DNA of 17,267 bases. Origin: a virus. Taxonomy: Duplodnaviria > Heunggongvirae > Uroviricota > Caudoviricetes. Shown in pieces: positions 2,291-17,267 of this stretch (within the stretch, counting starts at the first letter, position 1; the number at the start of each line of letters is the position of its first letter). The notes below the pieces were generated by a model. That model searched no databases. It was not told the origin of the DNA and was given only the letters and a program-made list of their open reading frames with translations. The stretch is taken from IMG/VR virus record IMGVR_UViG_2565956714_000008, positions 1 through 17,267 of that record; one strand, given 5' to 3'. Both the position numbers and the translations under genes were made by a program.

Positions 2291-2564
2291 CGCTGTTATT
2301 GCTGGGTAAGATCAAAAAACTTTCAGGCAGCTAAGGAAAGTTGAACCAGACATTAGATGAAATATTTCAACCAATTACAGCACCAATTCAGTCACTGCCA
2401 GCCCACCAAATAAATCAAGGGGTTACATGAAAACGTAGCCCCTTTTTCTTTGGTAGTGACACTAAAATGGATGTAGTGTGAAGAATAATCCCGTTTACTC
2501 AATCAATAATACATATTGTTTCAATCTACGTTATTATCTCTTTGTAAAAATTGCCATTTATTAA

Positions 2565-3356
2565 TCATTGAAAACTGCTTTTAGAACTTGATACAACGGG
2601 ACTAGTCACAACAGGACTATTCTCAACGGGATCATCCTCAGAGGAACTATCATCAAAGTCATCATCCATAAATAAAATATCATCGAATGGTGCCACGCCC
2701 GTGATGAGTTTTATTTTATTATTACGATCAGTCAATACTCCACTTAAACCGTTTTCGCTCACAGGTTTTAATGATTTTTCATTACTCTTGTTGTAAGCAG
2801 GCGCATTAAAAATACACGGAGTATCAACATCAAACAATGACGTTCCCCAGTTCACATATTGAATATCATAGTTACTGAAGTTCTGTCCAGAAAAGAAGCA
2901 CCCCTTAAAATCCAATCCACGTAAATTATATAAACCACCCTCTTCTTTTTGGAGAGTAATGTTAATTTTGGCTATCTCCCGGACATCATCGCCATTTTTG
3001 TATTTGAATACCGTTTCAAGATGTTCTCCAGACAGCTTGACTTCAGGAAATAATTTGAAATCAAAGCCTATATTATTATGTGTCAACGTAGATGAACAAA
3101 AAATGGAAAAAGCTTGCAGTGCTGAATTATAGCTATCGATTTTATCTTGAGGCTGAGCTCTTGGTAAAAACTTATAGCAACACTCATAAAAATTAAACAG
3201 AAGCTCTGAAGACCTTGTATTTTTATCAAATAATACCCCCTTGAACTCATTCACAAACGCATCTTTTTTTTCTTGAATATCTATGGGGTGTTCCTTTGAC
3301 TCTGACAAAGATGAAATCTCATCTATTTTGTTTTCATATGAATTACGTGATTCCAT
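2565..3356 (-). CDS. Hypothetical protein, 263 aa, AT-rich, acidic Ser/Asp-rich C-terminus
   Basis: Long uninterrupted minus-strand ORF in AT-rich DNA; no recognisable domain; no clear Shine-Dalgarno before ATG 3356. Position corresponds to ypjB if my recollection of the K-12 gene order is right. Confidence 0.55.
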   Translation of the reverse strand: MESRNSYENKIDEISSLSESKEHPIDIQEKKDAFVNEFKGVLFDKNTRSSELLFNFYECCYKFLPRAQPQDKIDSYNSALQAFSIFCSSTLTHNNIGFDFKLFPEVKLSGEHLETVFKYKNGDDVREIAKINITLQKEEGGLYNLRGLDFKGCFFSGQNFSNYDIQYVNWGTSLFDVDTPCIFNAPAYNKSNEKSLKPVSENGLSGVLTDRNNKIKLITGVAPFDDILFMDDDFDDSSSEDDPVENSPVVTSPVVSSSKSSFQ

Positions 3357-3455
3357 ACAGACATTTGGCGGCGTTTCTAAAATAACACTACGCGTACTAC
3401 TTGGCTTAAGTAAACCAACATGAAAATCACTTTTTCTTATATTATCGAAAAGGTT

Positions 3456-3938
3456 CTATTCATTTCTTTTAGCGCATTCAAAAAACTGATCGGCATTATT
3501 TTTATTCGATAATTTTTTAGTTTCAGAAAACACATTTTCATTGTTTTCCAGCTTTAGTTTAATGAGAAGATTTTCCCAGACCTGCTTGCTTAAACATATT
3601 ACGTCAGGCTCACCAGAACTAACTAACTCGTGATTATTATTAAAGTGTACGTTGAATACCTTTAAGTTATTTTCACCAACTTCATATTTAATACGTTTTA
3701 ATTGTTCTCCAGCTCCCATAATGACAAAGGCGTTGCCTTCTTGATATATACATTCAGACATCATTTTTTGTAAAGTTTCAAGAGCACCGCGATACGTCTC
3801 TGATGCAGCTTCCTTACAAATTAATTTTAAAATACTATGAGCTAGTAGCTCCATGTGTTTAGAAGATTTATTTTCATTATAACTTCCACTACCCAAAACT
3901 GCGCTAGCGTTAAATCCGTTGCTTTTACTAACTAACAT
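3456..3938 (-). CDS. Hypothetical protein, 160 aa, AT-rich
   Basis: Minus-strand ORF with GAGGA 7 nt upstream of ATG 3938; same strand as and 100 bp upstream of the 263-aa ORF (likely co-transcribed). No recognisable domain. Position corresponds to ypjC in K-12 gene order. Confidence 0.55.
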   Translation of the reverse strand: MLVSKSNGFNASAVLGSGSYNENKSSKHMELLAHSILKLICKEAASETYRGALETLQKMMSECIYQEGNAFVIMGAGEQLKRIKYEVGENNLKVFNVHFNNNHELVSSGEPDVICLSKQVWENLLIKLKLENNENVFSETKKLSNKNNADQFFECAKRNE

Positions 3939-4688
3939 TGTCTATTCCTCAATTAATGTCTACATGGCTATTTTTAATGTTATTACTGTTTGTCACTATA
4001 AAAAAACGCTCATTTGAGACAATTACTGACATTAACTGCTTCACTTGCTACGCATGGAACTTTTAATTAAATTAGCACAGGAATGTTAAATTTAATAAAC
4101 AAAAGGTTATTTCGCTGTATGATAAAAAAAACCGTTATAATTTATTAGTGAAAATCGTTTTTCAAGTGTTAGAAATTTATATCTCAATAGCGTTGGTTAA
4201 TGAGCATAGCCACGCTCCTGTAACGCTCACAAAACTCATCTGCCTGCGGCGGGTGTTCTGGTCAGTAGTAGATGTTTAAGGCGTGGCAGAGACATTTCAT
4301 CCTTACTCTACGGCATTGTTCTACATACATTGGTTGTGGTACTCACTTATCATCAGTGAGCGAACAGAGAATAGTTCAGTGATTTGAGTAATTAACCTGA
4401 TTAAATGAAGGGGTATAATAAATGATAATACTCTGGCTTTATCGTTAATTACTTAATTCCACATGTAAGCAATTTGCCCGCTTGGCATAGCAGGCATTTT
4501 TTCCAGGTACTTTTGAATGAGTACTGATGGATAAATACATTGCAGTGGCGTGCCACGTACCAAAACACCAGCCCTCATTCGAAACCACCCACCGCACTTC
4601 TTCCTTGAAATGGCGTTAGTCATGAAATATAGACCGCCATCGAGTACCCCTTGTACCCTTAACTCTTCCTGATACGTAAATAATGATT

Positions 4689-4733
4689 TGGTGGCCCTTG
4701 CTGGACTTGAACCAGCGACCAAGCGATTATGAG
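4689..4733 (-). repeat. att core copy: 45-nt duplicate of the tRNA-Ile2 3' end (acceptor/T-arm to anticodon loop), marking the left boundary of the integrated element
   Basis: tggtggcccttgctggacttgaaccagcgaccaagcgattatgag matches 15430-15474 at 44 of 45 positions (single C/T difference); the sequence diverges immediately after, and the region upstream in tRNA orientation is not tRNA-like. Confidence 0.85.
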
Positions 4734-4842
4734 TTGGTTGATAACCCTTTACTTACAGATACTTAGCGATACTTTTCAATACCTTAGCATTTTTTAAAAC
4801 TACTGTATAAATACCTGTATATACCCCAAAATACTTCTTTAC

Positions 4843-4890
4843 GGTATCCTATAGGTATCCTGGAGCAGAACAAGCGATTTTCCAGGATAC
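4843..4890. promoter_or_regulatory. Putative integrase arm-type binding sites (GGTATCCT direct repeats plus inverted copy)
   Basis: ggtatcctataggtatcctgg at 4843-4863 and inverted copy tccaggatac at 4881-4890; a near-identical block ggtatcctataagtatcctgg occurs at 15367-15387 beside the other att core. Function inferred. Confidence 0.4.
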
Positions 4891-4914
4891 CAGATCGCTT
4901 GGTGGGGTGTATGA

Positions 4915-6336
4915 GTGAAATTATTCAGATTCTCTAAAGTAAAAATTGCAGAACTGCCAACGCCGGAACATGGACAGGTCGAATATGGTGATACGGAGGT
5001 TAACGGGCTGCGTGTCCGTGTAGGTTCGTCTGGTGTGAAAAGTTTCTGCATTTCCCGTAAGCGTAACGGAAAATTTATTCGTGCAACGCTGGGGCGTTTT
5101 CCTGATCTGAGCGTGGATAATGCCAGGGCTAAAGCTATGGAACTCCTTGGCGAAGTCGCCACAACGGGGATAAATCCGAACATAGCAAAGCGCACTAACA
5201 ACAAGGCCATGATAACGCTGAGTGAGGCGATTGACGCCTACGTAAAAAATCGTGGCCACCGCCTGAAACCCTCCACAGAAAAACAGTACCGCAGCATATT
5301 ACAGAATTATTCCGGTGACTGGATGGCCCATACCCTCGCCAGTATTTCCCGCGAACGGGTGGAACAACGGCATAAGGCCATCACTGATGGGGCTGTATGG
5401 TTCGGTGCTGATAAAACCACGTTACGGGCTGGGGTTGGTACAGGAAGCAAGGCACAGGCCGATTTATGGGCGCGTGCGCTACGTGCTGTGTGTCGGTTTG
5501 CGCATGATCATTACCGTGATGATGCGGGTAATACTCTTTTACCGGATCCGCCGACTCTGGTACTGAGCACCAAGCGCCAGTGGCACGGAACGGTAAGAAA
5601 AACGGAACGTATCCGCCTGCATGATTTTCCCCGCTGGTTTGCTGCTGTAGCTGCTGTGCGCGACCAGGGCGAACAGGAAAGGGATGATATAGCTGTTACG
5701 GTATGTGATGCCGTGGAAATGGCACTGTTTACCGGACTGAGGAAATCAGAAGTTTTTGGCCTTACGTGGGATCGCGTGAATATGGGCGGTCGCTTTTTCT
5801 GGATAGACACCACGAAAAACGGGGATCCGCTTGAACTGCCGATCACTGATACGTTGCGGAAAATGTTTCTTCGCAGGCTAAAAAACAAAGCTGCTGATGA
5901 TGTGCTGGTGTTTCCTGGCGTGAAGGGAGTGATTCAGGAGACACGGCACATCATAGACCGGATAAGCGCGGCTACCATTCCTGAGGCGAACGATGAAATG
6001 CTCTTCCCTGTCCCGTTTAAGTGGCACGACGCACGCCGGACGTTCGGAACGGTTGCTGAGCTGGTGGGCGTGGGTAATTACATCCTCAAGCGCCTGATGA
6101 ATCACCGCACTATGCGAAGTGCCGACGTAACGCAGGGGTATTTACATTTCGGTGCTGATGAACTGCTGGAGCCAGCATCACGGATAGAACGGGCAATTCT
6201 GGAACATGCCGGGCTGGTGGAGAGTAAAAAATCTATCGATGCGCAATTACTTTCCGCACTGGAGGGCATGAGTGATGATGAAAAACGTCGTTTACTATTT
6301 GCTATAGTACAAGAAAAGAATGACATATATGGGTGA
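4915..6336 (+). CDS. int: Tyrosine recombinase / integrase, P4-like with N-terminal arm-binding domain
   Basis: 473-aa ORF starting GTG 4915. The N-terminus (LPTPEHGQVEYGDTEVNGLRVRVGSSGVKSFCISRKRNGKFIRATLGRFPDLSVDNARAKAMELLGEV) fits the arm-binding domain pattern of P4-family integrases; C-terminal region has catalytic-domain signatures (LFTGLRKSEV, HDARRTFGT, TQGYLHF). Lies 180 bp inside the att repeat. Confidence 0.9.
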   Translation: MKLFRFSKVKIAELPTPEHGQVEYGDTEVNGLRVRVGSSGVKSFCISRKRNGKFIRATLGRFPDLSVDNARAKAMELLGEVATTGINPNIAKRTNNKAMITLSEAIDAYVKNRGHRLKPSTEKQYRSILQNYSGDWMAHTLASISRERVEQRHKAITDGAVWFGADKTTLRAGVGTGSKAQADLWARALRAVCRFAHDHYRDDAGNTLLPDPPTLVLSTKRQWHGTVRKTERIRLHDFPRWFAAVAAVRDQGEQERDDIAVTVCDAVEMALFTGLRKSEVFGLTWDRVNMGGRFFWIDTTKNGDPLELPITDTLRKMFLRRLKNKAADDVLVFPGVKGVIQETRHIIDRISAATIPEANDEMLFPVPFKWHDARRTFGTVAELVGVGNYILKRLMNHRTMRSADVTQGYLHFGADELLEPASRIERAILEHAGLVESKKSIDAQLLSALEGMSDDEKRRLLFAIVQEKNDIYG

Positions 6337-7045
6337 TAACAATATATCGGTCAAACAATATATTATTTATTCGGTTATGAATGATTTAATTACTGGTGGG
6401 CGAGACTCTTCAGTTTTAAACGTTCCTGTATCTTTATCCCCGAAAAACTCCACCATAGAGGCTATAAAACGCTTGATTGATGATATAAGAGATTATTTTT
6501 ATAAATCAAAGTATCCAACAAGAGAATTTCTTTTGTGTTATGGTTTAGAATTAAGAGAAATCGAGCAATATCCTATTGAATTAGCTATAAGAATGGATTC
6601 ATGTGGTTTTTTAATATTTGATAGTAAACTATCTTGTCAGGTTGTCGATACTTTAAATTCAGCAGTTGCATTGTACCATGTCGGAATGCGTAATCACGCA
6701 GACAAACTTACTAGGGTTGGTGTTGAGTTATTGCTTAATGACTTTTTTGAAGAAATTATATCGAACCATGAAAAAGATAAAAAAATAAAAGATGCTTTAT
6801 CCTTATCACAGAAAGAAAAAGCGCGCAAACCAAGAAATCATTATTACAATGAAGTTATGCACGTAATTAAACTAACATGGGAAAAGTACCCTAAAGCCAG
6901 TAAAACAGGTTTATTGAACGAGCTTTCTGTTTACTATCATGGGAAAGTAAGTAAAAACACTCTGGATAAATGGATTAAAGAATCAGGAGCACAACCACCA
7001 AGACCTGATAAATATTCTTCGTTTGAACTTGTTCACCCCCAATAG
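6320..7045 (+). CDS. Hypothetical protein, 241 aa, markedly AT-rich cargo gene; possible HTH near C-terminus
   Basis: ORF overlaps the integrase stop by 17 nt (ATG 6320; alternative ATG 6329). Base composition is visibly more AT-rich than the flanking integrase and regulator genes. No recognisable catalytic motif; C-terminal KASKTGLLNELSVYYHGKVSKNTLDKWIKE looks HTH-like. Confidence 0.55.
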   Translation: MTYMGDNNISVKQYIIYSVMNDLITGGRDSSVLNVPVSLSPKNSTIEAIKRLIDDIRDYFYKSKYPTREFLLCYGLELREIEQYPIELAIRMDSCGFLIFDSKLSCQVVDTLNSAVALYHVGMRNHADKLTRVGVELLLNDFFEEIISNHEKDKKIKDALSLSQKEKARKPRNHYYNEVMHVIKLTWEKYPKASKTGLLNELSVYYHGKVSKNTLDKWIKESGAQPPRPDKYSSFELVHPQ

Positions 7046-7073
7046 CTGGCTAGTGTATCTTAATAGCTGGCTA
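7041..7073. repeat. Two direct repeats aatagctggcta spaced 21 bp, upstream of the Xis/AlpA-like gene
   Basis: aatagctggcta at 7041-7052 and 7062-7073; a partial third copy (ctggctatt) near 7110. Possible regulator binding sites. Confidence 0.3.
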
Positions 7074-7150
7074 TTAAGGCTAAATAACTGGTAACCTCCC
7101 CACAGCAACTGGCTATTGGGCTAAAAACAAAATACCCATTGATTGATATT

Positions 7151-7184
7151 TATCACCGTTGTTACTTAGAAGTACACGGTGATA
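7151..7184. promoter_or_regulatory. Inverted repeat TATCACCGT-N16-ACGGTGATA overlapping the ribosome-binding region of the downstream HTH gene; candidate operator
   Basis: Perfect 9-bp arms at 7151-7159 and 7176-7184. The half-site TATCACCG resembles lambda-type operator half-sites, although the spacing differs from lambda operators. Confidence 0.4.
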
Positions 7185-7187
7185 GAT

Positions 7188-7397
7188 ATGAATTTAAAGA
7201 AATCTGATTTATCAACTGACCGCCTTACACGTGCTGAAGCTGCTGCCTACCTTGGCGTTAACAATCAAACGCTGGCGAACTGGGCCTGTACTGGCAAGGT
7301 AAAAATCCCTTTCCATAAGCTGGGGCGCAAAGTGCTGTATATGCGCACTGATCTCGATGCTTATCTTGCATCCACTCGCAGAACGCAGACGGTGTAA
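7188..7397 (+). CDS. Xis/AlpA-superfamily helix-turn-helix DNA-binding protein (excisionase-like or induction regulator)
   Basis: 69 aa from ATG 7188 (track start GTG 7179). LTRAEAAAYLGVNNQTLANWACTGKVKIPFHKLGRKVLYMRTDLDAYL fits the excisionase-family HTH pattern (L..EAA.YLGVS..TL..W...G.IP..K.GR...Y...DLDAYL). Confidence 0.75.
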   Translation: MNLKKSDLSTDRLTRAEAAAYLGVNNQTLANWACTGKVKIPFHKLGRKVLYMRTDLDAYLASTRRTQTV

Positions 7398-7744
7398 GGG
7401 GGAGTGATGGCACATAAAACAAAGGCGACCGCAGAGGGCCGCCAGTGGCATAACACTAAACTTGAGCATATCCAGAATACCAGGTTGTTGGCTGGTGGGC
7501 AATGCTATCAGTCTGGCTCGATTCGCTGCCATGCCTGCAATGAGCGTATTTTCCTAGAATACTCTTTAAGGTACTTCTCAAGGATAAACGCACATGGTGC
7601 GAATCTCTCCGGTTCATGTTCGTTTACCGCATTTTTGCGTTGTTTTTTCTTGGATGAGGATAATTTCTTTAATGATTTGTCAGTCATCGTAGATACCTGT
7701 AACCCTGTGCGCCACAGTTCACCGCACCACGGCGCTGGTGATGG

Positions 7745-7870
7745 TTACTCCTGCTCTTTGGCCTTGCGCCGCTGGCGGCGTTTGATCTCATCAAGGATTT
7801 TTCTTGGTAAGAAGCCTGCTGGTTTATTCTCTGGTAGAGAAAGTTTGTTATCGGTCTGCTTTTCAGTCAT
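7745..7870 (-). CDS. Small basic protein, 41 aa, translationally coupled to the upstream RHH gene
   Basis: ATG at 7870 lies 3 nt after the RHH stop codon (ATGtaTGA arrangement); encodes MTEKQTDNKLSLPENKPAGFLPRKILDEIKRRQRRKAKEQE. Below the ORF-track length cut-off; a weak call. Confidence 0.25.
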   Translation of the reverse strand: MTEKQTDNKLSLPENKPAGFLPRKILDEIKRRQRRKAKEQE

Positions 7871-7873
7871 ACA

Positions 7874-8065
7874 TCAGCCTTTAGGTTCAATGCCGCGTCG
7901 CTTTAGTTCGGCACGAGCTAATTCTTTAAACCAATTGCCGAGGGTTAGGCCATCGGCGGTTGCTGCCTCGTTTACTTGCTGGCGTAGTTCTTTGCTAATT
8001 CGTATCTGGAATGTCGGCGACCATCCCTCGCCGCGTGGTGATTTATCCCGCTTTAATGTTGACAT
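7874..8065 (-). CDS. Ribbon-helix-helix (Arc/CopG-like) DNA-binding protein, candidate repressor
   Basis: 63 aa; ...FQIRISKELRQQVNEAATADGLTLGNWFKELARAEL has the beta-strand/helix/helix layout of RHH proteins. Its start codon is embedded in a perfect palindromic operator (8064-8109). Confidence 0.6.
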   Translation of the reverse strand: MSTLKRDKSPRGEGWSPTFQIRISKELRQQVNEAATADGLTLGNWFKELARAELKRRGIEPKG

Positions 8066-8109
8066 GTACGTACGTAACTCCTATTATCATCAATATTACG
8101 TACGTACAT
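8064..8109. promoter_or_regulatory. Palindromic operator: two copies of the self-complementary 10-mer TACGTACGTA within perfect 14-bp inverted arms, in the divergent promoter region
   Basis: atgtacgtacgtaa (8064-8077) and ttacgtacgtacat (8096-8109) are exact reverse complements, separated by 18 bp that include the RHH gene's AGGAG ribosome-binding site. Confidence 0.55.
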
Positions 8110-8133
8110 TAACAGTAAGTGCAACAAAAAACA

Positions 8134-8168
8134 AAGCCCCGCAAGTGTCGTTACCACTCGCAGGGCTT
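8134..8168 (-). terminator. Hairpin with 12 of 14 paired bases, followed by a U-run on the minus strand only
   Basis: aagccccgcaagtg / cactcgcagggctt with loop tcgttac; A-tract 8121-8133 gives UGUUUUUUGUU after the hairpin on the minus strand. On the plus strand it would sit in the 5' UTR of the replication operon. Function uncertain. Confidence 0.3.
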
Positions 8169-8204
8169 CTAACCACCAACGATAACGAGAGTATCGAGGT
8201 AGCT

Positions 8205-8408
8205 ATGAGAAATCATACCATACACCCGCAAGGGCGGGATTCGCACAACCTGAATAAATTCGCCTGGCGTTTTATCGCCCTGAGCGCCGCAAAACCGCGT
8301 GTGATTACCATCGTGGCCACCAGCGAACAGGAAGCACGCCAGCACTCCCCGGCTGGCTGCGTGATGGTATTCGCCGCCCGTATTCGTCAGGGGGTGTGCC
8401 ATGCCTGA
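8205..8408 (+). CDS. Hypothetical protein, 67 aa, first gene of the plus-strand operon leading to the replication gene
   Basis: ATG 8205 with GAGGT 5 nt upstream; codon usage on this strand is typical of E. coli coding DNA (ctg, gcc, acc, atc, cgt, ccg), unlike the overlapping antisense ORFs; stop overlaps the next start (8401). Confidence 0.45.
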   Translation: MRNHTIHPQGRDSHNLNKFAWRFIALSAAKPRVITIVATSEQEARQHSPAGCVMVFAARIRQGVCHA

Positions 8409-8721
8409 TATGTCAAATTACCAGTACCTGATTAATCCGCATTTTAACTGTGAGCATGATATTGCTAAAAAGGTTTATTCCGCTGCGGATGGGGCGACTG
8501 ACAATATATCAATGGCCGTTGCGTCAATTGGTAGCCTGATGTGGCATGCGTCAGAAAATGAGGACTATGACGAAAAGGCCATGCGCATTGATATGGGTAA
8601 TATCGGTTTGTTACTGGCAATGCTTGGACATTTTGATATTTCGTTACGGTGCACCATTGAAAATGCCACAGATGCATTAAATGCCATAAAGAAAGCGAAT
8701 ACTGATTCAAATCGGGGATAA
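8401..8721 (+). CDS. Hypothetical protein, 106 aa
   Basis: ATG 8401 with GGGGG 6 nt upstream; overlaps the preceding stop; no recognisable domain. Confidence 0.5.
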   Translation: MPDMSNYQYLINPHFNCEHDIAKKVYSAADGATDNISMAVASIGSLMWHASENEDYDEKAMRIDMGNIGLLLAMLGHFDISLRCTIENATDALNAIKKANTDSNRG

Positions 8722-8727
8722 ATAATC

Positions 8728-9027
8728 ATGAGAACGTATTTATCTGGCTTGACTGCCAGCGGTTATGCACATCCCAAAATTATCCCCGGCGCTATTTATC
8801 TGGATAAGAACGGTAACAGAGTAACGGTAAAAGAACTGATGTTTGACCGTGTGTATTTTATTCGTGATGGCTATTCATTTCATAGTTCGCTGAACGTGGA
8901 GATCTTTATTAGCAGATTCAGGCGGGAAATCCCGCTTTCCAGAAATAACCATGTGTCACGTGTGAATGTGGATAAAAAACTACAGGAACTGAAAAACATG
9001 ATTGCCGCGTGGAGAGAGCAGAAATGA
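8728..9027 (+). CDS. Hypothetical protein, 99 aa
   Basis: ATG 8728 (GGGGA 9 nt upstream); its stop overlaps the replication-gene start (ATGA at 9024-9027), indicating translational coupling. Confidence 0.5.
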   Translation: MRTYLSGLTASGYAHPKIIPGAIYLDKNGNRVTVKELMFDRVYFIRDGYSFHSSLNVEIFISRFRREIPLSRNNHVSRVNVDKKLQELKNMIAAWREQK

Positions 9028-10841
9028 AAAAAGCGCCAAATTTAAAACACCAGTCGCGTGACAAAATGACGGAAGTCATCATTTTTGCGGGTAGTGATGC
9101 GTGGGCACATGCGAAGCAGTGGCAGGAACAGGACGGGCGACTGGCTGGCGATAACGTGCCTCCTGTCTGGCTTGGAGAGCAACAACTTGCCGAACTGGAC
9201 AACCTGCAAATCGTACCGGACGGACGCTATCGCGTGCGTCTCTATCAGGCGGGGTTATTGCGTCCGGGGCTTGTTAATACCATCGGGCAGAAACTGGCAG
9301 CGGCAGGTGTCAGGGATGCTGATTATTATCCTGAAGGAATGCACAGCCAGAAACGGGAGAACTGGCGCGAATATCTGGAACGTGAACGGGCAGAGCAGGC
9401 GGAAAAGAAAAAGGTAGTTGAACTGCCTGTAAAGAAAAAAGAGCGGGTAAAAGACGATAACGCTTCATCACTGGCGCTTAACCAGATGGGAGCAAGTCAA
9501 CGCGGCGAAGTTCTCCTGGCACATTATGGCGGTGAATTGGCGATTCATGCTGACTCTGACACTGTTCACCATTACAACGGCGTTGTATGGGAGCCAGTAC
9601 AGGATAAAGAATTACAGCGAGCTATGGCACAGATTTTCATTGATGCGGAGATCAGCTATTCGCAGAACGCCATTAAATCGGCGGTCGATACCATGAAGTT
9701 AAGTTTGCCTGTAATGGGGAATACAGCCCGTAACCTGATTGGATTCAGTAACGGGGTATTTGATACCAGAACAGGTAATTTTCGGGGGCATAACAAAAAC
9801 GACTGGTTGTTAATTGCCAGTGAATTACCTTTCAGCCCACCAGCAGAGGGGGAAACACTGGCAACACATGCGCCGAATTTCTGGAAGTGGTTACGCCGTT
9901 CGGTGGCTGAGAATGACCGCAAGGCAGATCGCGTACTGGCGGCATTATTCATGGTGCTGGCGAACCGGTACGACTGGCAGTTATTCATTGAGGTAACAGG
10001 GCCGGGGGGAAGTGGTAAAAGCGTGATGGCGGAGATTTGCACCATGCTGGCGGGTAAGGCTAATACAGTATCAGCAAGCATGAAGGCGCTGGAAGATGCA
10101 AGGGAACGTGCGTTAGTGGTTGGCTTTTCGCTGATTATCATGCCGGATATGACCCGCTACGCTGGTGATGGGGCAGGGATTAAGGCCATTACAGGCGGTG
10201 ACAAGGTGGCAATTGACCCGAAACACAAAGCCCCCTACTCAACGCGTATTCCGGCAGTAGTGCTGGCGGTTAACAATAACGCCATGTCATTCAGTGACCG
10301 CAGCGGGGGGATCTCACGTCGTCGGGTGATATTCAATTTTTCGGAAGTTGTACCGGAGAACGAACGCGATCCGATGCTGGCGGAAAAAATAGAAGGTGAG
10401 CTGGCGGTAGTGATTCGCCATCTGCTTACACGGTTTGCTGACCAGGACGAAGCCAGACGCCTGTTATATGAGCAGCAGAAATCTGAAGAAGCACTGGCGA
10501 TAAAGCGAGAGGGGGATTCGCTGGTGGACTTCTGCGGCTATCTCATGGCGTCGGTAATGTGTGATGGCCTGTTAGTGGGTAATGCTGAAATTGTGCCATT
10601 CAGCCCGCGCAGGTATCTCTATCATGCCTATCTGGCTTATATGAGGGCTCATGGGTTTGGTAAACCTGTAACACTGACGCGCTTCGGTAAAGATATGCCT
10701 GGGGCAATGGCGGAATATGGCAGGGAGTATATAAAACGGAAAACGAAGCACGGTTTACGTTCAAACGTGACACTGACGGAGGAATCAGAAGACTGGATGC
10801 CATCATGTGTATCAGTCACTAATGACGATAGCAAAAATTAA
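9024..10841 (+). CDS. Replication initiator: primase/SF3-helicase-like P-loop NTPase (Pri-Rep type)
   Basis: 605 aa from ATG 9024 (GGAGAGAG 5 nt upstream; track start GTG 9009). Walker A VTGPGGSGKSVMAEIC and a downstream hydrophobic-acidic segment (LIIMPDM) as candidate Walker B, in the C-terminal half; immediately followed by an iteron cluster as in PICI/SaPI and P4-type replication modules. The N-terminal half has no motif I can assign. Confidence 0.8.
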   Translation: MKKAPNLKHQSRDKMTEVIIFAGSDAWAHAKQWQEQDGRLAGDNVPPVWLGEQQLAELDNLQIVPDGRYRVRLYQAGLLRPGLVNTIGQKLAAAGVRDADYYPEGMHSQKRENWREYLERERAEQAEKKKVVELPVKKKERVKDDNASSLALNQMGASQRGEVLLAHYGGELAIHADSDTVHHYNGVVWEPVQDKELQRAMAQIFIDAEISYSQNAIKSAVDTMKLSLPVMGNTARNLIGFSNGVFDTRTGNFRGHNKNDWLLIASELPFSPPAEGETLATHAPNFWKWLRRSVAENDRKADRVLAALFMVLANRYDWQLFIEVTGPGGSGKSVMAEICTMLAGKANTVSASMKALEDARERALVVGFSLIIMPDMTRYAGDGAGIKAITGGDKVAIDPKHKAPYSTRIPAVVLAVNNNAMSFSDRSGGISRRRVIFNFSEVVPENERDPMLAEKIEGELAVVIRHLLTRFADQDEARRLLYEQQKSEEALAIKREGDSLVDFCGYLMASVMCDGLLVGNAEIVPFSPRRYLYHAYLAYMRAHGFGKPVTLTRFGKDMPGAMAEYGREYIKRKTKHGLRSNVTLTEESEDWMPSCVSVTNDDSKN

Positions 10842-10853
10842 ACTTATGGAATA

Positions 10854-11085
10854 ACTGTTCACCACTGTTCACCCTGTCATAAATATCTTTTATATCAGTA
10901 TATTATAGGGTGAACAGTTATTTATGAACTATTCACCAAACTATTCACTGTTCACCTTTTTGGTTGTTTATTGAGCTTCAAGGGTGAACAGTGGTGAACA
11001 GTTGGTGAATAGTTTTTGTAAAACTGTTCACCCCTTAACAGTATGAATTTAAATGGAAAATATCAAAAGGTGAACAGGTGAAGGG
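10854..11085. repeat. Iteron-type replication origin: about 11 copies of ACTGTTCACC / GGTGAACAGT in both orientations within AT-rich spacers
   Basis: tgttcacc at 10856-10863, 10866-10873, 10949-10956, 11025-11032; variant tattcacc at 10930-10937; inverted ggtgaaca at 10909-10916, 10983-10990, 10993-11000, 11069-11076; variants ggtgaata at 11004-11011 and ggtgaagg at 11078-11085. Several copies are tandem with ~10-bp period. Confidence 0.7.
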
Positions 11086-11128
11086 TTAAAATACAAAAAT
11101 TTTAATTTATTGCTCTGAGATAAAGCCT

Positions 11129-11374
11129 ATGACAGCGAAGCGCACAAAAAAAACACAATCGCACGCCCTTGATTTGACGGAACACTGGTTAAGGGGGTCG
11201 ATAAAAATCATCGACCGCAACGCCGGGGAAGGATACGCGAAAGCACATCCCGAACTGATAAGCGCATTCATGACCACGGCGGCGGCAAATTTTGCCACGC
11301 TAACAGAGCGGGAGATTGCCGAAGCGGAACAGGTAACAACCATCAACGTTAAAACCGGAGAGCAGACAGCATGA
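11129..11374 (+). CDS. Hypothetical protein, 81 aa
   Basis: ATG 11129 with only a weak ribosome-binding site; stop overlaps the SSB start (ATGA at 11371-11374). No recognisable domain. Confidence 0.45.
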   Translation: MTAKRTKKTQSHALDLTEHWLRGSIKIIDRNAGEGYAKAHPELISAFMTTAAANFATLTEREIAEAEQVTTINVKTGEQTA

Positions 11375-11793
11375 CAGCACAGATAGCGGCTTACGGACGG
11401 CTGGTGGCTGACCCGCAGTTAAAGACCACTAGCAAGGGTACACAAATGACGATGGCTAGTATGGCGGTCCCCCTTCCGTGCAGCCAGGCAGATGACGGAA
11501 CGGCGACGATGTGGTTATCCGTCCTGGCGTTTGGCAGACAGGCCGACGCACTGGCAAAACACCACAAAGGCGAACTGGTGAGCGTGGCGGGTAACATGCA
11601 GGTAAGCCAGTGGACAGGCCAGAACGGCGAAACGCGGCAGGGCTGGCAGGTTATCGCAGACAGTGTAATCAGTGCCAGAACGGCGCGACCGGGCGGCAAA
11701 AAAGGTCAACAGGGCCAGGCTACTGACGCACTGAACAGGGCAAAACAACAGTCGGGGAATGATGATCCGTACGGCGATAATATACCGTTTTAA
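11371..11793 (+). CDS. ssb: Single-stranded DNA-binding protein (SSB) with acidic C-terminal tip
   Basis: 140 aa; OB-fold region WLSVLAFGRQADALAKHHKGELVSVAGNMQVSQWTGQNGETRQGWQVIAD parallels E. coli SSB ([51 protein letters not shown]); Gly/Gln-rich linker and C-terminal DDPYGDNIPF resembling the SSB tail DDDIPF. Confidence 0.8.
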   Translation: MTAQIAAYGRLVADPQLKTTSKGTQMTMASMAVPLPCSQADDGTATMWLSVLAFGRQADALAKHHKGELVSVAGNMQVSQWTGQNGETRQGWQVIADSVISARTARPGGKKGQQGQATDALNRAKQQSGNDDPYGDNIPF

Positions 11794-11803
11794 ATTCTGC
11801 AAA

Positions 11804-11839
11804 TAAAAAAATGCCGGAAGAAAATAGATTTTCCGGCAT
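11804..11839 (-). terminator. Stable hairpin (9-bp stem ATGCCGGAA/TTCCGGCAT) between ssb and the capsid gene, forming a canonical intrinsic terminator only in the minus orientation
   Basis: Stem 11811-11819 and 11831-11839, loop 11 nt; A-run 11804-11810 gives a U-run after the hairpin on the minus strand; no U-run follows it on the plus strand. Confidence 0.35.
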
Positions 11840-12010
11840 GCTACATAAATCCCGACCAAAGGAAGTAAATACATTAACACGAATTATCAGCACTGAAGTT
11901 GTCACGGCAGATTTTATACAACATTGCACTTGGTTGCATGTATTCGCATAGCAAATATCGGTGATAGCATATATCCACAATTATTTTTAATGAATGCAAA
12001 GAGGATGCGT

Positions 12011-13051
12011 ATGGTTGATTTATATTCGCCTGCCCAGCTTGTGCAGGTGGCTAATGCTGAAGATGTGCAAAAAAAATTAAATGTGTTGTTTACCAGTTTG
12101 TTTTTCACTCGCTCGGTAATGTTTGAATCGAGAGACATTATTCTTGATACGATCGACGATCCAAATATCCCGATCGCGGCGTTTTGCTCTCCTATGGTGG
12201 GCAGTAAAGTTTCACGAGATGAGGGATACGAATCAAAAACAATTCGCCCTGGCTATATGAAACCGAAAAGCAGCATTGATCCAAATAAGTTAGCTGTGCG
12301 CCCTGCTGGTGTGTCACCTGAGCAATACAATGCTTTTGGGGCGCGTAATATTAAAGTTAAACAGGCGATTGTAAATCAGGCTAAAGCTATTCGTACACGT
12401 ATTGAATGGCTTGCTGTTCAGGCAATCACAACGGGGAAAAATATCATTGAGGGCGATGGTATTGAACGTTATGAGCTGGACTGGAATATAAAACCACAAA
12501 ATATCATCACTCAGTCTGGCGGTACTGAGTGGTCAGGTAAGGATAAAGAAACTTTTGATCCAAATGATGATATTGAGAGCTACGCAGAATTTAGTGAGGG
12601 CGTCACTAATATCATCATTATGGGCGGTAATGTATGGAAGAAATACCGTTCATTCAGAGCGATAAAAGAGGCTCTGGATACCCGTCGTGGTTCTAATTCC
12701 GAACTGGAAACGGCCCTTAAAGACCTTGGTGATTCGGTGAGTTTTAAAGGGTATATGGGCGATGTTGCGATTGTTGTTTACAGCGGGCGTTATACCGACG
12801 AGGACGGAACTGAAAAATATTTCCTTGATCCTGATTTGATGGTGCTTGGCAATACGGCTCTCCAGGGGATTGTCGCTTATGGCGGTATTCAGGATCCGGA
12901 GCTAATCCGGATGGGGCTGACTAAAGCCGAACTTGCACCGAAAAACTATATTGTGCCTGGTGATCCGGCTATTGAATATGTGCAGACACATTCAGCACCA
13001 CAGCCAATACCGGCCCGTATCAATCGTTTTGTTACCGTTCGCATTGGCTAA
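12011..13051 (+). CDS. Major capsid protein, lambda gpE family
   Basis: 346 aa from ATG 12011 (AAAGAGGA, 5-nt spacer; track start 11924 is upstream in frame). Long colinear matches to lambda gpE as I recall it: ITQSGGTEWSGKDKETFDPNDDIESY vs ITQSGGTEWSKRDKSTYDPTDDIEAY; DTRRGSNSELETALKDLG vs DTRRGSNSELETAVKDLG; GDVAIVVYSGRY vs GDVAIVVYSGQY; MVLGNT in both. Confidence 0.9.
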   Translation: MVDLYSPAQLVQVANAEDVQKKLNVLFTSLFFTRSVMFESRDIILDTIDDPNIPIAAFCSPMVGSKVSRDEGYESKTIRPGYMKPKSSIDPNKLAVRPAGVSPEQYNAFGARNIKVKQAIVNQAKAIRTRIEWLAVQAITTGKNIIEGDGIERYELDWNIKPQNIITQSGGTEWSGKDKETFDPNDDIESYAEFSEGVTNIIIMGGNVWKKYRSFRAIKEALDTRRGSNSELETALKDLGDSVSFKGYMGDVAIVVYSGRYTDEDGTEKYFLDPDLMVLGNTALQGIVAYGGIQDPELIRMGLTKAELAPKNYIVPGDPAIEYVQTHSAPQPIPARINRFVTVRIG

Positions 13052-13061
13052 GGGGGGAGCA

Positions 13062-13403
13062 ATGGCTACTCATTACACTGAACTCATGGCTGGCACTGAA
13101 GCACTGGTTACTACGCTGGGGATATTTTCAGCTAATAAAGGGGTAATTCCTGCATTTACGCCACTGATGCAGGAAGATACAACAGGTGCACTGGTGGTAT
13201 GGGATGGTACGAGTGCAGGTAAAGCTGTTTATGTTTCCGCTGTACAACTCGATACAGCGAAAAAAACACAGGCTCAGGTCTATAAGACAGGTGTCTTAAA
13301 TGTTGATGCTCTTAACTGGCCTGAGTCAGTAAAAGAACTGTCAGTAAAGGTTGCAGCGTTTGTTGGCTCAGGTATTTCTGTTCAGCCGCTGGCTCGTGTG
13401 TAA
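13062..13403 (+). CDS. Head decoration protein, lambda gpD family
   Basis: 113 aa from ATG 13062 (GGGGGGAG upstream). IPAFTPLMQEDTTGALVVWDGTSAGKAV...KTGVLNVDALNWPE...AAFVGSGISV parallels lambda gpD [28 protein letters not shown]...KSGTFRYEDVLWPE...TAFAGTAISIV. Confidence 0.85.
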   Translation: MATHYTELMAGTEALVTTLGIFSANKGVIPAFTPLMQEDTTGALVVWDGTSAGKAVYVSAVQLDTAKKTQAQVYKTGVLNVDALNWPESVKELSVKVAAFVGSGISVQPLARV

Positions 13404-13414
13404 AGGGGGATACA

Positions 13415-13798
13415 ATGCAGAATCATTACAATGACCTTAAGCCAATTGCCGAAATGATGTATCCGGATCCAGCAGTAGAGGAATTAAAGGCTATTGCTGA
13501 CAAAATGCGTTTAAGCGAGCGTCTTGTTGATATGAATCAGGTGATGGAACTTACAACCCTGAGTCGTCGTACACTGCTAAACCTTGAAGCACGTGGAGAG
13601 TTCCCCGAACGCGTGCAGGTTACGGAAGGGCGTAAGGCCTGGTATTTAAGCGAAGTGATCGACTGGATAAACAATATTCCGCGCGCTTCTGAATATTGCC
13701 GCGTACCTGTCCCAAAAAAGCCAGATGCGGCGCTATGCCTCAAGATTGATCGTGTACGCCGCAATGCACGGGATGGTCGCTATAAGCTGATTGGTTGA
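13415..13798 (+). CDS. AlpA-family HTH protein with ~40-aa N-terminal extension, immediately upstream of cos
   Basis: 127 aa, ATG 13415 with GGGGGA 5 nt upstream. MELTTLSRRTLLNLEARGEFPERVQVTEGRKAWYLSEVIDWINN fits the AlpA pattern (T.LSR.T...L...G.FP.PV.LG.R...W...EV..WI). Confidence 0.7.
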   Translation: MQNHYNDLKPIAEMMYPDPAVEELKAIADKMRLSERLVDMNQVMELTTLSRRTLLNLEARGEFPERVQVTEGRKAWYLSEVIDWINNIPRASEYCRVPVPKKPDAALCLKIDRVRRNARDGRYKLIG

Positions 13799-13822
13799 TG
13801 AAATTAGGGCCCGTTCTGGCTG

Positions 13823-14020
13823 GCGGGTCCTTTCCGGCGATCCGGTAGGCTACGGGGCGTCAGGCGCGCGGGTTTTCGCTTTTTATGAAAATTTTCCGGT
13901 TTAAGGCGTTTCCGTTCTTCTTCGCCGTAACTTTATGTTTTTATTTGAAACACCCCCTGAAAAGAAAGGAAACGACAGGTGCTGAAAACGGGCTTTTTGG
14001 CCTCTGTCGTTTCCTTTCTC
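13823..14020 (+). other. Lambda-type cos site: cosQ-like segment, cosN-equivalent 12-mer (13855-13866, divergent) and cosB with R3, I1, R2 and R1 elements
   Basis: From 13867 onward the sequence (cgcgggttttcgctttttatgaaaattttccggtttaaggcgtttccgttcttcttcg ... ctgaaaagaaaggaaacgacaggtgctgaaaacgggctttttggcctctgtcgtttcctttctc) is nearly identical to my recollection of lambda left-end bases 13-170, including R3 cgtttccgttct (13907-13918), R2 agaaaggaaacg (13963-13974) and R1 cgtttcctttct (14008-14019). Upstream gcgggtcctttccggcgatccggtaggctacg parallels the lambda right end ACGGGTCCTTTCCGGTGATCCGACAGGTTACG. The 12-mer is GGGCGTCAGGCG here versus GGGCGGCGACCT in lambda. Confidence 0.8.
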
Positions 14021-14339
14021 GTTTTTGAGCAAAACTGGCTCTATACATGCTTAGAAATGCTAGGGTTTTTGCGTAATACAGGTAGTGCAGGAGATTCACC
14101 AGGGGATTATTCATATATGCTGGTAGGCGCTATGTGTTAGTGGTGAGCGAAAAACAATCAAAACCGACACCGTAAAAATAAAAATCACAAATTATCAATT
14201 AGTTGTGCCAGTGGTGATGGCGAATGAAATTTCAAAAACTAGCCTTTTTCCGCGATGCTTTCGCCCCGTGGCAGGCCACCCCACCAGGAGGACCCGCTAC
14301 AATTACGGTATCAACCTCATCACTATGGAGGCCATGACC

Positions 14340-14624
14340 ATGACCGAGACCGAAGCGCTCGAAATAATCCGCAGTATTACCGGAATCAGCCAGGCAACAG
14401 GCAAACAGGAGGCCACGCAGCCGGACAGCGTCACCGCTGAAAATTACGCGCGTGTGGTGGCTGAGGTGATGCGCCGTGACGGTATTGAGCTTAACGGCGT
14501 GGATATGCGCAACATACGAACCAGAGTCCTTGAGTTGCTGGCATACCGTCGCCGTTCTCAACAACGGAGGGAGAGCGCGAAAAATACTTACCAGTGGAAG
14601 AAGCCGGAACGACTGCGGTGGTAA
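14340..14624 (+). CDS. Hypothetical protein, 95 aa, in the position lambda Nu1 occupies relative to cosB but unrelated to Nu1
   Basis: Best-supported start ATG 14340 (GGAGG with 8-nt spacer); in-frame alternatives at 14205 (GTG), 14217, 14325 and 14334. Arg-rich C-terminus; no recognisable domain. Confidence 0.45.
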   Translation: MTETEALEIIRSITGISQATGKQEATQPDSVTAENYARVVAEVMRRDGIELNGVDMRNIRTRVLELLAYRRRSQQRRESAKNTYQWKKPERLRW

Positions 14625-14642
14625 CTTGCTGATATTCCCGAT

Positions 14643-14890
14643 AACGCAAAATTGCGTTGGCTGGTGGGTGAGTTGCAGATCTGCAACTCGACCATGAAAC
14701 TACGGAAACTACCCGTAGTTTGGGTAGTAAGAGTAACACCCAGATTTTGGGGCTTACTCGCGATACCCAAATAAAGGGTATCGGTGGAAGAAATATCGTT
14801 TCTCATATGTGAGTACCGAGGGCGGAATTCCGCCTTCGGTTACTTATTGTGCTCATGCACAGGGAGAGGCGGGTACAAATCTCTGTACCC
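14643..14890. repeat. Cluster of six inverted repeats/palindromes in a ~250-bp non-coding stretch
   Basis: AACGCAA-aa-TTGCGTT (14643-14658); perfect 20-bp palindrome GAGTTGCAGATCTGCAACTC (14670-14689); AAACTACGG/CCGTAGTTT (14697-14721) overlapping ACTACCC/GGGTAGT (14708-14728); GATACCC/GGGTATC (14762-14782); GGCGGAATTCCGCC (14821-14834); GGGTACA/TGTACCC (14871-14890). Confidence 0.45.
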
Positions 14891-15033
14891 TGACGTCTTC
14901 CGGACTGCCAGCCCCATCGTTTTTTTACGCCCGCGAAAAATAAAAATTGTTTGTATGTGAGTATTGTAGCCAGCAAAAGCTCTTTCTTTAGTGGCTTATT
15001 GTTTCTAATAGATTTTGGGAGGTAGAAATGGGA

Positions 15034-15053
15034 GGCCCAGCGAAAGCTGGGCC
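15034..15053 (-). terminator. GC hairpin with GAAA tetraloop (GGCCCAGC-gaaa-GCTGGGCC) just downstream of the small minus-strand ORF
   Basis: 8-bp perfect stem; on the minus strand it follows the stop at 15072 and is followed by a C/U-rich tract (UCCCAUUUCU), so not a textbook U-run. Confidence 0.3.
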
Positions 15054-15071
15054 GAGCTTGTTACGCTGTCA

Positions 15072-15215
15072 TTACTTCAGCATGATAACTAAAGCTATAC
15101 ATACTAGCACTACGGCTATTGGGCATAGACCTAAATTGCCAAGTGCTGCGATTAAACCTGTAACGGCAATCACACGTGCAGACAGCAGGTCTGAGCCCTT
15201 TCTTAAAGTATCCAT
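15072..15215 (-). CDS. Small hydrophobic protein, 47 aa, with a predicted C-terminal transmembrane helix
   Basis: ATG at 15215 preceded by GGAGG with 5-nt spacer; encodes MDTLRKGSDLLSARVIAVTGLIAALGNLGLCPIAVVLVCIALVIMLK. Below the ORF-track length cut-off. It is antisense to the 100-aa plus-strand ORF 15028-15330, which also has a strong ribosome-binding site, so the call is uncertain. Confidence 0.35.
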   Translation of the reverse strand: MDTLRKGSDLLSARVIAVTGLIAALGNLGLCPIAVVLVCIALVIMLK

Positions 15216-15366
15216 TGATACCTCCGTCAGGGTTTTTGCCGGTCTCTTGGAGAGTTGGGGGCAAAAGTTCAGACCCGTAGCACTTTCTTGTTCGCAGGTG
15301 AACGGCTGCTACGACCCAACTGTTCTGTAGGCATGAGCCAATTCTTACTTGTTAATACTTCTCAGA

Positions 15367-15387
15367 GGTATCCTATAAGTATCCTGG
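15367..15387. promoter_or_regulatory. Putative integrase arm-type sites (second copy of the GGTATCCT repeat block)
   Basis: ggtatcctataagtatcctgg, 43 bp from the tRNA/att core; near-identical to 4843-4863 at the other end of the element. Confidence 0.4.
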
Positions 15388-15429
15388 TAAAGCAAGATAG
15401 TTTGGATACATCTGTAATTCATTGAAATC

Positions 15430-15505
15430 TGGTGGCCCCTGCTGGACTTGAACCAGCGACCAAGCGATTATGAGTCGCCTGCTCTAACCACTGAGCTAAA
15501 GGGCC
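15430..15505 (-). tRNA. ileY: tRNA-Ile2 (anticodon CAU, lysidine-type; anticodon-only tools would call tRNA-Met)
   Basis: Reverse complement of 15430-15505 is a 76-nt tRNA: GGCCCTTTAGCTCAGTGGTTAGAGCAGGCGACTCATAATCGCTTGGTCGCTGGTTCAAGTCCAGCAGGGGCCACCA, with 7-bp acceptor stem (one G-U pair), anticodon loop CUCAUAA and encoded CCA. It matches my memory of E. coli ileX/ileY and differs from elongator and initiator tRNA-Met. ileY chosen from the flanking gene order. Confidence 0.9.
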
Positions 15506-16064
15506 TTGAGTGTGCAATAACAATACTTATAAACCACGCAATAAACATGATGATCATATGATGTAAATAACAGATTTTTATGCGTTCCCATTCACCTTGG
15601 GTCGTGATTACACGCGACATAAAACCCGACACCGCCTCCATTCGCAAAGTCGATACTCGCAGTCAACAAGCAAATGTTAATAATTAGCACTATCTATAGT
15701 TATCATCGATTCAATGATACTTTGTAATGATTTTGTATCTAATAATATAACTTTATTACATTAGCTGAAGAGTTTTCGCATCATTATGATATCTGTTACT
15801 TTTCACTCCATAAAAATAAACTTCGTATAGCAATATATTCTTTCATAGATCTTATTCTGCTAATCATTAGTTTCGTATGAGCGATTTTTGACAGTTGCCT
15901 CTCCAGACCACATCGATAATTAATAAAACAGATTTAAGCATTATCCTTTTCCATATAAATATTGGATAAAAGTAGGACATCTGTTTGCAATTACTTTCAC
16001 AACAATTAAACATTTTTATGTTTCCGTATACATCATATTACTCTACCATTAGAGGAACTTTATT

Positions 16065-17267
16065 ATGTTTTCTATAAAACCAGGACCCAGAAATTTACCT
16101 ATCGACAACCCCACATTGTTATCATGGAACATTACTGACGGGGATCTAAATTCCAAATTAAATACATTAGAATATCTAAACTGTATAACAAATATTATTA
16201 ATTCTTGTGGAGTTTACCCTCAAGGATTAAAAGACAGAGAAATTATATCAACTTTTCACGCAGAAAAAGTTATTAATGATCTGTTAAAAAACGATTATAA
16301 AATTTCCCTTTCTCCAGATACAACTTACCGAGAGTTGAATAAAGCAGCACAGCGTAGCATTACAGCGCCAGACAGGATAGGAGAAAGAAAAACATAGGTT
16401 TATCAACGAGATACAATGATTGAAAGAGGTGATAACAGCGGTGTTTATCAGTATGGTCGTGCTGAACATTTCACCCACATTATATCTGACAAACCTTCCC
16501 CAAAAGATAAATATGTTGCATATGCTATTAACATTCCTGACTATGAGCTGGCAGCCGATGTATATAATATTAACGTGACGTCACCTTCCGGACAGCAAGA
16601 AACATTTAAAATATTAATCAATCCAGAACATCTACGGCAAACACTTGAGCGTAAATCTCTTACTGCTGTTCAGAAATCACAATGTGAAATCATCACCCCC
16701 AAAAAACCTGGCGAAGCGATTCTTCATGCTTTTAATGCCACCTACCAGCAGATCAGAGAAAATATGTCTGAATTTGCACGTTGCCATTATGGGTATATAC
16801 AAATCCCTCCAGTGACAACTTTCCGTGCCGACGGACCAGAAACTCCCGAAGAAGAAAAAGGTTACTGGTTTCACGCTTATCAACCCGAAGATCTTTGTAC
16901 CATCCACAATCCAATGGGAGATTTGCAGGATTTTATCGCATTGGTTAAAGATGCTAAAAAATTTGGTATCGATATCATTCCTGATTATACCTTTAACTTT
17001 ATGGGAATCGGGGGTAGTGGTAAAAATGACCTGGATTATCCCTCTGCTGATATACGAGCGAAGATCAGTAAAGATATAGAAAGTGGTATCCCTGGCTATT
17101 GGCAAGGTCAGGTTTTGATTCCATTTACTATAGATCCAGTAACAAAAGAACGTAAACAAATCCATCCAGAAGATATACATCTCACTGCAAAAGACTTCGA
17201 AGCAAGTAAAGATAATATTTCTAAGGATGAATGGGAAAACCTCCATGCATTAAAAGAAATCGTTTAA
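16065..17267 (+). pseudogene. ygaQ: Alpha-amylase family (GH13-like) gene interrupted by a single in-frame amber codon
   Basis: ORFs 16065-16397 and 16416-17267 are in the same frame, separated only by TAG at 16395-16397 plus six sense codons. The downstream part carries amylase-like motifs (GYIQIPPVTT..., GYWFHAYQPEDLCTIHNPMGDLQDFIALVKDAKKFGIDIIPDYTFNFMG, compare G.TA.Q.SP..., W.RYQP..Y.L.TR.G..DEF..MV..C...GV.IYVD.V.NHM). Symbol from locus memory (ygaQ is next to ileY in K-12 and annotated as a pseudogene); amylase assignment is motif-level only. The gene ends exactly at the window end. Confidence 0.5.

Follow-up and report, generated by a model that had tools for sequence, protein, structure and literature searches.

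Two small open reading frames (ORFs) lie opposite each other beside a tRNA gene in the 17,267-nt stretch of DNA analysed here (positions 1 to 17,267 of IMG/VR virus record IMGVR_UViG_2565956714_000008; hereafter, the window), and each begins shortly after a strong Shine-Dalgarno (SD)-like motif. The original prediction, made from the letters of the sequence, treated them as a sense/antisense pair in which the minus-strand ORF encodes a 47-aa membrane peptide, and likened the arrangement to type I toxin-antitoxin and some superinfection-exclusion systems. This raises the question of which of the two ORFs is a gene, what kind of element carries it, and what its product might do. The elements named in that prediction are present: on the minus strand, GGAGG, a 5-nt spacer, an ATG and the 47-aa ORF are followed by a hairpin, and on the plus strand, GGGAGG (15017-22) stands 5 nt before the ATG (15028) of a 100-aa ORF.

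A phage satellite integrated at ileY

The window is a piece of the Escherichia coli chromosome around ileY (ypjA ... tRNA-Ile ... alpha-amylase pseudogene). An element of ~10.8 kb (4686-15475) is integrated in the 3' end of this tRNA-Ile2 gene, which has the anticodon CAU (15430-15505, minus strand; called Met by ARAGORN and tRNA-Ile in the RefSeq annotation). It is bracketed by a 49-bp direct repeat (attL, 4686-4734; attR core, 15427-15475) that covers the 3' part of the tRNA. Pfam matches in the element include a major capsid protein of the lambda-E type, a decoration protein of the D type, and an AlpA regulator; a tyrosine integrase (4915-6336), an Icd-like protein, a primase, and an SSB were taken from the annotation of near-identical loci. 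With an integrase, an AlpA-type regulator, a primase, and capsid genes of its own between att repeats at a tRNA, the element is, judged by gene content, a capsid-forming PICI-type (cf-PICI-like) phage satellite.

At the tRNA-proximal end, two direct AGGATAC repeats (15368-15385, minus strand) have the character of integrase arm-type sites of the attP P' arm. The same tandem arrangement recurs at 4844-4861, together with an inverted copy at 4884-4890, beside int, and the window holds six copies of the motif against 1.5 expected. By sequence and placement, these repeats are attP arm-type sites on both sides of the core and outside the small gene; this identity accounts for 15368-15426 only, and the cassette that holds the small gene is separable from it. 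The idea that AGGATAC serves the small gene as a promoter or operator was rejected, as the motif also occurs beside int and in satellites that lack the cassette. A TAGGAT -10 element overlapping AGGATAC was likewise rejected, since it had a promoter score in only 9 of 17 homologues and not in the window. The P-arm set falls in the integrase promoter region, where integrase binding could autoregulate int.

In most homologues, an IHF-like WATCAANNNNTTR motif adjoins the att core, as seen in alignments. Most homologues also have a hairpin with a U-rich tail right after the tRNA (loci L013-L016, L022, L024, and L033), reaching -16.9 kcal/mol in Yersinia, which is probably an island-supplied tRNA terminator that overlaps the IHF-like site. 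The window differs from most homologues in having no U-run hairpin between tRNA and cassette: the equivalent segment (15386-15429) is degenerate, which would favor read-through into the small gene.

An optional cassette beside the arm sites

The small gene lies within a block of ~330 nt on the minus strand (from ~15325 down to 15034) that is inserted beside the integrase arm sites, between these and the satellite body, ~210-400 nt inside the right end. Of 5426 complete E. coli genomes, 29 contain the 480 bp between satellite body and tRNA at an identity of at least 99.6%, and the small gene is annotated in none of the 29. In L002, a related satellite that occupies the same tRNA, the arm sites and the tRNA-proximal hairpin with its T-run are present without the small-gene block, and a cassette-less tRNA-Ile arm is found in at least 58 E. 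coli genomes. Arm sites and tRNA hairpin thus persist in cassette-less satellites, and the cassette is therefore optional.

Three different head modules accompany the cassette in one satellite or another (lambda-E type, HK97 portal/TerL type, and a ClpP-capsid fusion). Wherever a locus includes enough upstream DNA, the cassette follows a tRNA(CAU) on the same strand; in the window, the ATG of the small gene is 214 nt downstream of the tRNA 3' end. Three of these tRNA(CAU)-linked loci, from metagenome and viral contigs (L037, L039, and L084), have different arm sequences: their upstream DNA is unlike that of the others, and homology starts at H1, the first hairpin of the mRNA leader. There the cassette stands ~245 nt from the tRNA(CAU), the intervening DNA is unrelated and without AGGATAC, and the loci have a terminator-like hairpin of their own upstream of the cassette. 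This arrangement indicates that the cassette has moved between att modules and has still remained downstream of a tRNA(CAU).

A conserved gene for a tiny membrane protein

The minus-strand ORF (15072-15215; MDTLRKGSDLLSARVIAVTGLIAALGNLGLCPIAVVLVCIALVIMLK) encodes 47 aa plus stop and starts at an ATG (15213-15215) with the SD sequence GGAGG (15221-15225) 5 nt upstream. Its frame is open in all 25 distinct homologous coding sequences, also across an indel, and the product is always 47-49 aa long, in at least 25 distinct homologues spread over seven genera of enterobacteria (Escherichia, Salmonella, Citrobacter, Enterobacter, Trabulsiella, Superficieibacter, and Yersinia), with further members in metagenomes. 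The SD is kept in all homologues and the ATG is conserved. The Nei-Gojobori dN/dS, calculated outside an invariant stretch near the start, stays below 1 in each of the 186 usable pairs (median, 0.25). On this comparative evidence, the ORF is a real, conserved, and unannotated gene for a tiny membrane protein, and the protein family appears to be confined to Enterobacterales.

Divergent copies came from a protein search, which returned five 47-48-aa proteins at 72-100% identity, from a 69%-identical Salmonella locus, and from scans for exact motifs in genomes, metagenomes, and viral contigs. Among the leader-motif matches in metagenomes (n = 45), 14 unique sequences (16 loci) were discarded as chance occurrences in GC-rich DNA, and another two fragments as too short to judge. 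Several homologue clades are closely related, so the counts given here are not counts of independent events.

The protein has a hydrophilic N-terminus (KGSDLLS.R) in which G-S-D-L-L-S is invariant and usually preceded by K, and Arg14 is nearly invariant. This is followed by an apolar segment of ~32 residues with a G-x-G-L-x-P kink (GRAVY of the 47 aa, 1.53) and a basic C-terminus (K, RK, or RR). AlphaFold predicts, with moderate confidence (pLDDT 74), a helix at residues 3-28, a break, and a second helix at residues 31-46. In size and hydrophobicity, the protein falls among type I toxins (<60 aa, membrane or hydrophobic). It has no match in Pfam or NCBIfam at E ≤ 1 or E ≤ 10 and none in PHROG or PADLOC with E < 0.1, and it matches no known defense or exclusion model. 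A profile search of 1.8 billion representatives returned just two further 48-aa clusters, of the same family, and no relatives outside it. Rfam gave no credible match at permissive thresholds for the window or for the Salmonella and Yersinia homologues, and the peptide motif GSDLL is absent from a type I toxin review and from the Fozo 2010 survey.

An mRNA predicted to hide its own ribosome-binding site

Compared with shuffled controls, the mRNA (minus) strand has a fold z-score of -4.77, versus -2.16 for the plus strand. All of the RNA structures below are thermodynamic or comparative predictions. The conserved cassette is limited on its 5' side by leader hairpin H1 (15272-15322, minus strand), which carries the invariant motif CAGUUGGGUCGUAGC; its 10 pairs are paired in 100% of cells of the alignment, with compensatory changes in two pairs. 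Just upstream of the SD, a second leader hairpin, H2 (UUUUGCC...GGCAAAA; 15234-15266, minus strand), has a stem that co-varies in all lineages (UUCCUAC/GUAGGAA, UUCUUGC/GCAAGAA, CCUUGC/GUAAGG), one clade having a shorter hairpin in its place. At the other end, conservation of the cassette stops right after a terminal 8-bp GC hairpin with a tetraloop (15034-15053, minus strand), in which four of the eight pairs show compensatory changes. The predicted GAAA-tetraloop hairpin is thus present, but GAAA is the reading of the plus strand and the mRNA of the window has UUUC; in most homologues, a GNRA loop is on the mRNA strand. As there is no U-tract on either strand, the hairpin was rejected as an intrinsic terminator. 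Many G-U pairs are possible only on the mRNA strand.

Within this frame, the SD is predicted to pair with codons 3-5 (GAUACUUU), with a mean pairing probability of 0.80 over 36 homologues and 0.79 in the window. The residues encoded by these codons vary freely (DTLR, TNSI, FDSI, INFT, and others), and their sequence tracks the flank of the SD: cognate SD/early-codon duplexes reach -11.3 kcal/mol versus -8.8 kcal/mol for non-cognate combinations (permutation p = 5e-5). The lock is weak in a Trabulsiella-like clade (-4 to -8 kcal/mol). Because the registers of this inner helix differ between clades, it does not resolve in a consensus alignment, and it was assessed by folding each sequence and by the test of cognate versus non-cognate duplexes. 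The mRNA is thus predicted, with covariation support, to fold so that its own ribosome-binding site is hidden.

A pairing hub inside the ORF

Codons 6-12 of the small gene form an 18-20-nt stretch (AAGGGCUCAGACCUGCUGUC; 15181-15200, minus strand) that is conserved at the nucleotide level and that we call the hub. Of codons 6-11, five have a synonymous diversity of 0 and D9 (GAC/GAT) has 0.22, while codon 12 (TCA/TCT) has 0.49; the values are 0.37 and 0.49 at the adjacent codons R14 and A17, and 0.62-0.76 at codons for conserved residues well outside the hub (L21, L25, G29, L30, P32, and L42). Part of the homologue set had been retrieved with the hub itself, but the key tests were run on an independent subset, which for the synonymous test comprised 24 homologues retrieved via the leader motif or via protein or DNA similarity.

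Three partners are predicted for the hub. (i) CCUUU, located just before the SD, is the partner of AAAGG(G); in the L036 clade, where the hub has AUGG instead of AAGG, the strand upstream of the SD has CCAU instead of CCUU. (ii) A leader strand at the 3' foot of H1 (GGGUCUGA; 15269-15276, minus strand) pairs with the hub segment UCAGACCU, a helix that closes off a domain containing H2 together with the SD and the AUG. This leader-hub helix is paired in 30 of 30 distinct sequences, C to U changes being kept as G-U, and L037, L039, and L084 have a double change from G-C to A-U (GAC to GAU together with GGG to GGA). (iii) In the 3'UTR, GACAGCG (15064-15070, minus strand), just before the terminal hairpin, pairs with UGCUGUC of the hub. 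Here, 95.8% of cells are paired, the outermost pair being unpaired in 5 of 17 sequences. Three pairs vary on one of the two strands, and each of their 17 changed cells is a transition that leaves a G-U or A-U pair in place. Since the hub strand is invariant here, the 3'UTR-hub helix shows no double compensatory change. For the two long-range helices (3'UTR-hub and leader-ORF), support is mostly conservation and wobble-compatible changes. The window was also searched for a second hub copy, as part of a trans-acting RNA, and none was found.

Transcription and a candidate antisense RNA

No conserved sigma-70 promoter for the small-gene mRNA was found among the homologues. Upstream, only the promoter of the tRNA, with its TATAAT ~190 nt before H1, is consistently strong, and transcription of the small gene by read-through from the tRNA is a real possibility. 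No leader peptide or mok-like frame is conserved among the homologues; the window has a single leader ORF (21 aa, 15269-15334), whose start codon is absent in Salmonella.

On the plus strand, a candidate antisense promoter (CAGACA-19 nt-TAAAGT, 15179-15209) lies over the hub and codons 3-5. A motif of this form (TTGACA-18/19-xAxAGT) matches at 8-10 of 12 positions in 35 of 36 homologues, with a spacing of 19 nt in about half of the sequences, and the window has the weakest match (8 of 12); its conservation is fully explained by the constraints on the hub and on the anti-SD strand. No intrinsic terminator was found downstream of it. An RNA started at this candidate promoter would run antisense to the leader, the SD, and the AUG, so that a cis antisense antitoxin RNA is a weak possibility suggested by the motif.

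Possible functions of the cassette

We consider a new type I-toxin-like module to be the most likely function of the cassette, at a probability of about one half, with a toxicity that we infer from the protein and its mRNA. The type I-toxin-like reading of the original prediction is thus retained on the strength of the minus-strand peptide, as a member of a conserved family with a co-varying, SD-sequestering mRNA, and not of the pairing of two ORFs. The mRNA of ~300 nt would fold into a closed form unfavorable for translation, in which the layers of the lock would be formed by codons 3-5 with the SD, codons 5-7 with the bases before it, codons 8-10 with the leader 3' of H1, and codons 10-12 with the 3'UTR just before the terminal hairpin. 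By the logic of hok or aapA1, this would maintain a stable and inert pool of mRNA that becomes translatable only after processing or refolding. The product would be harmful, as a pore-forming or membrane-perturbing peptide, and an RNA antisense to the start region may counter it. Such a module would stabilize the satellite through post-segregational killing or abort competing infections; the role of the cassette is plausibly satellite maintenance or abortive interference.

It is possible, and clearly less probable, that the product is instead a non-toxic small membrane "moron" protein, which serves exclusion, modulates host membrane proteins, or helps induction, and whose expression is limited or timed by the RNA structure. 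The same evidence for a real gene (open frame, dN/dS, and SD) would fit such a protein, as would its being an accessory gene, variably placed at one end of a mobile element, and its location downstream of a strong constitutive tRNA promoter, which suits a lysogenic-conversion gene; moreover, the antitoxin search found none. What argues for the toxin is the triple lock on the start together with six frozen codons, which ordinary small membrane proteins seldom have and which is typical of toxin mRNAs, and the moron reading also has no defense or exclusion model that matched.

A bolder proposal, to which we give little weight, is that the cassette represents an undescribed type I family resident on the attP arm of tRNA-Ile2 satellites, expressed by tRNA read-through and controlled by a hub that switches between three partners. 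The toxin mRNA would then come largely from the host tRNA promoter, and so only while the satellite is integrated, and the hub would alternate between the leader, the stretch before the SD, and the 3'UTR to license translation. If so, the killing potential would report the integration state of the element.

That the cassette is a structured non-coding RNA (a tRNA 3' trailer or terminator, an sRNA, or a part of the attP arm) with an incidental ORF is very unlikely. The strong conservation and structure at the RNA level, and the position directly downstream of the tRNA and adjoining the integrase arm sites, would agree with it; however, the frame is always open over 47-49 aa, with a dN/dS of 0.25 and with SD and ATG kept, and Rfam holds no match. 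Furthermore, the satellites without the cassette keep arm sites and hairpin, which makes the cassette dispensable for integration and for tRNA termination.

The plus-strand ORF (15028-15330) is the mirror frame of the small gene and extends into the non-conserved flank. It was rejected as a gene: in homologues it spans 8-106 aa with differing starts and stops, the frame is open across the region in 12 of 25 homologues, against 25 of 25 for the minus strand, and it has no Pfam or NCBIfam family. With it, the sense/antisense ORF pair loses its standing as a feature, and the overlapping antisense transcription that had been proposed is not in the sequence, having been deduced from this non-conserved ORF. 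Two overlapping opposite-strand protein genes, each with its own ribosome-binding site, are hardly credible here, even though both ORFs and both SD-like motifs exist in the window and a plus-strand ORF of ~100 aa is also present in the closest Citrobacter-type relatives, given the shifting ends of this ORF, a start that lies outside the conserved cassette in the window, and the expectation that a frame mirroring a hydrophobic ORF stays partly open.

Just 3' of the terminal hairpin, the minus strand carries two CCUCC(C) anti-SD-like motifs (15010-15033), found only in E. coli and the Citrobacter lineage. Located on the mRNA strand, they account for the plus-strand "GGGAGG" that had been taken for a ribosome-binding site, and they could add to the masking of the SD if the transcript reaches that far.

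Comparison with known systems

The hok/sok locus is a type I toxin-antitoxin system of plasmid R1, the E. coli chromosome, and prophages. The cassette resembles hok (PMC5416894) in its membrane peptide of ~50 aa, its compact long mRNA, its terminal hairpin, and its association with mobile elements, as well as in a 3'-proximal element that pairs with the 5' part and in a masked translation start. Unlike hok, however, the small gene shows no sequence similarity to the Hok family (Pfam Hok_Gef, PF01848, was unmatched), its hydrophobic segment is C-terminal rather than N-terminal, it has no conserved overlapping mok-like frame, and its 3' element binds codons 10-12, where that of hok reaches the extreme 5' end. 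Likewise, no Sok-like RNA with promoter and terminator was found at the cassette.

Full-length aapA1 and hok mRNAs are inert owing to long-distance 5'-3' pairing and SD sequestration, and they are activated by 3' processing (PMC5416894; PMC6733600). The aapA1/IsoA1 system of Helicobacter pylori shares with the cassette a 5'-3' interaction, sequestration by an anti-SD, and the lack of a mok-like ORF (PMC5416894; PMC6733600). The antitoxin promoter of aapA1 lies opposite the toxin start, and its sRNA covers the SD and the leader, a geometry that the candidate antisense promoter reproduces. The two differ in that aapA1 belongs to a different phylum, has no homology to the small gene, and encodes a peptide of 30 aa rather than 47 aa; the hypothetical antisense RNA of the cassette has no terminator, and its central pairing hub lies inside the ORF.

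Among the E. coli type I systems, tisB/istR-1, zorO/orzO, and dinQ/agrB have a long, processed 5'UTR. The cassette is similar to them in its small hydrophobic peptide and in a structured leader of >100 nt with a primary transcript that would be poorly translatable; these systems have a divergent gene for a trans-acting sRNA upstream, whereas the cassette has the attP arm and the tRNA in that position. Pfam and NCBIfam gave no homology to Ldr, TisB, Ibs, ShoB, ZorO, DinQ, or TimP. As an optional gene at a variable end position, found with differing structural modules, the small gene is comparable to the accessory genes of satellites and PICIs (PMC10085698), but known satellite cargo consists of annotated protein systems, and this is a 47-aa gene that annotation missed.

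The gene escaped annotation in all 29 of the complete E. coli genomes that carry it, and it is in no curated protein or RNA library. If its product is a toxin, the few known enterobacterial type I systems would gain a new family. The searched literature contains no paper that links type I toxins with phage satellites or PICIs, and on this basis the family would be the first with such a tie. A toxin would also give cf-PICI-type satellites a way to stabilize themselves or to interfere with phages. Even if non-toxic, the gene would be a clean natural case of synonymous sites frozen by a three-way RNA pairing hub, and thus a good model for translational locks encoded within an mRNA; conserved "synonymous" stretches of this kind flag regulatory RNA.

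Other features of the satellite

The small terminase of related satellites is apparently absent from the copy in the window. At 13902-14118, 217 bp replace the ~690 bp that contain the small-terminase gene in the closest satellite (L002), and an IS21 element interrupts this gene in another locus (L001). The satellite copy in the window may be defective in packaging. To the left of the cassette, a strong GC hairpin that runs into a T-rich tail (14815-14840, plus strand) is probably the terminator of the rightward operon of the satellite, convergent with the small gene. In other strains, near-identical satellites are carried at ileX, beside mug and rpoD. In E. coli PS10-3 (L086), the same satellite body (an HTH regulator, the small terminase, and a hypothetical gene) is present at another chromosomal site, near clpS, without the cassette, from which it appears that satellite body and integration module are exchangeable.
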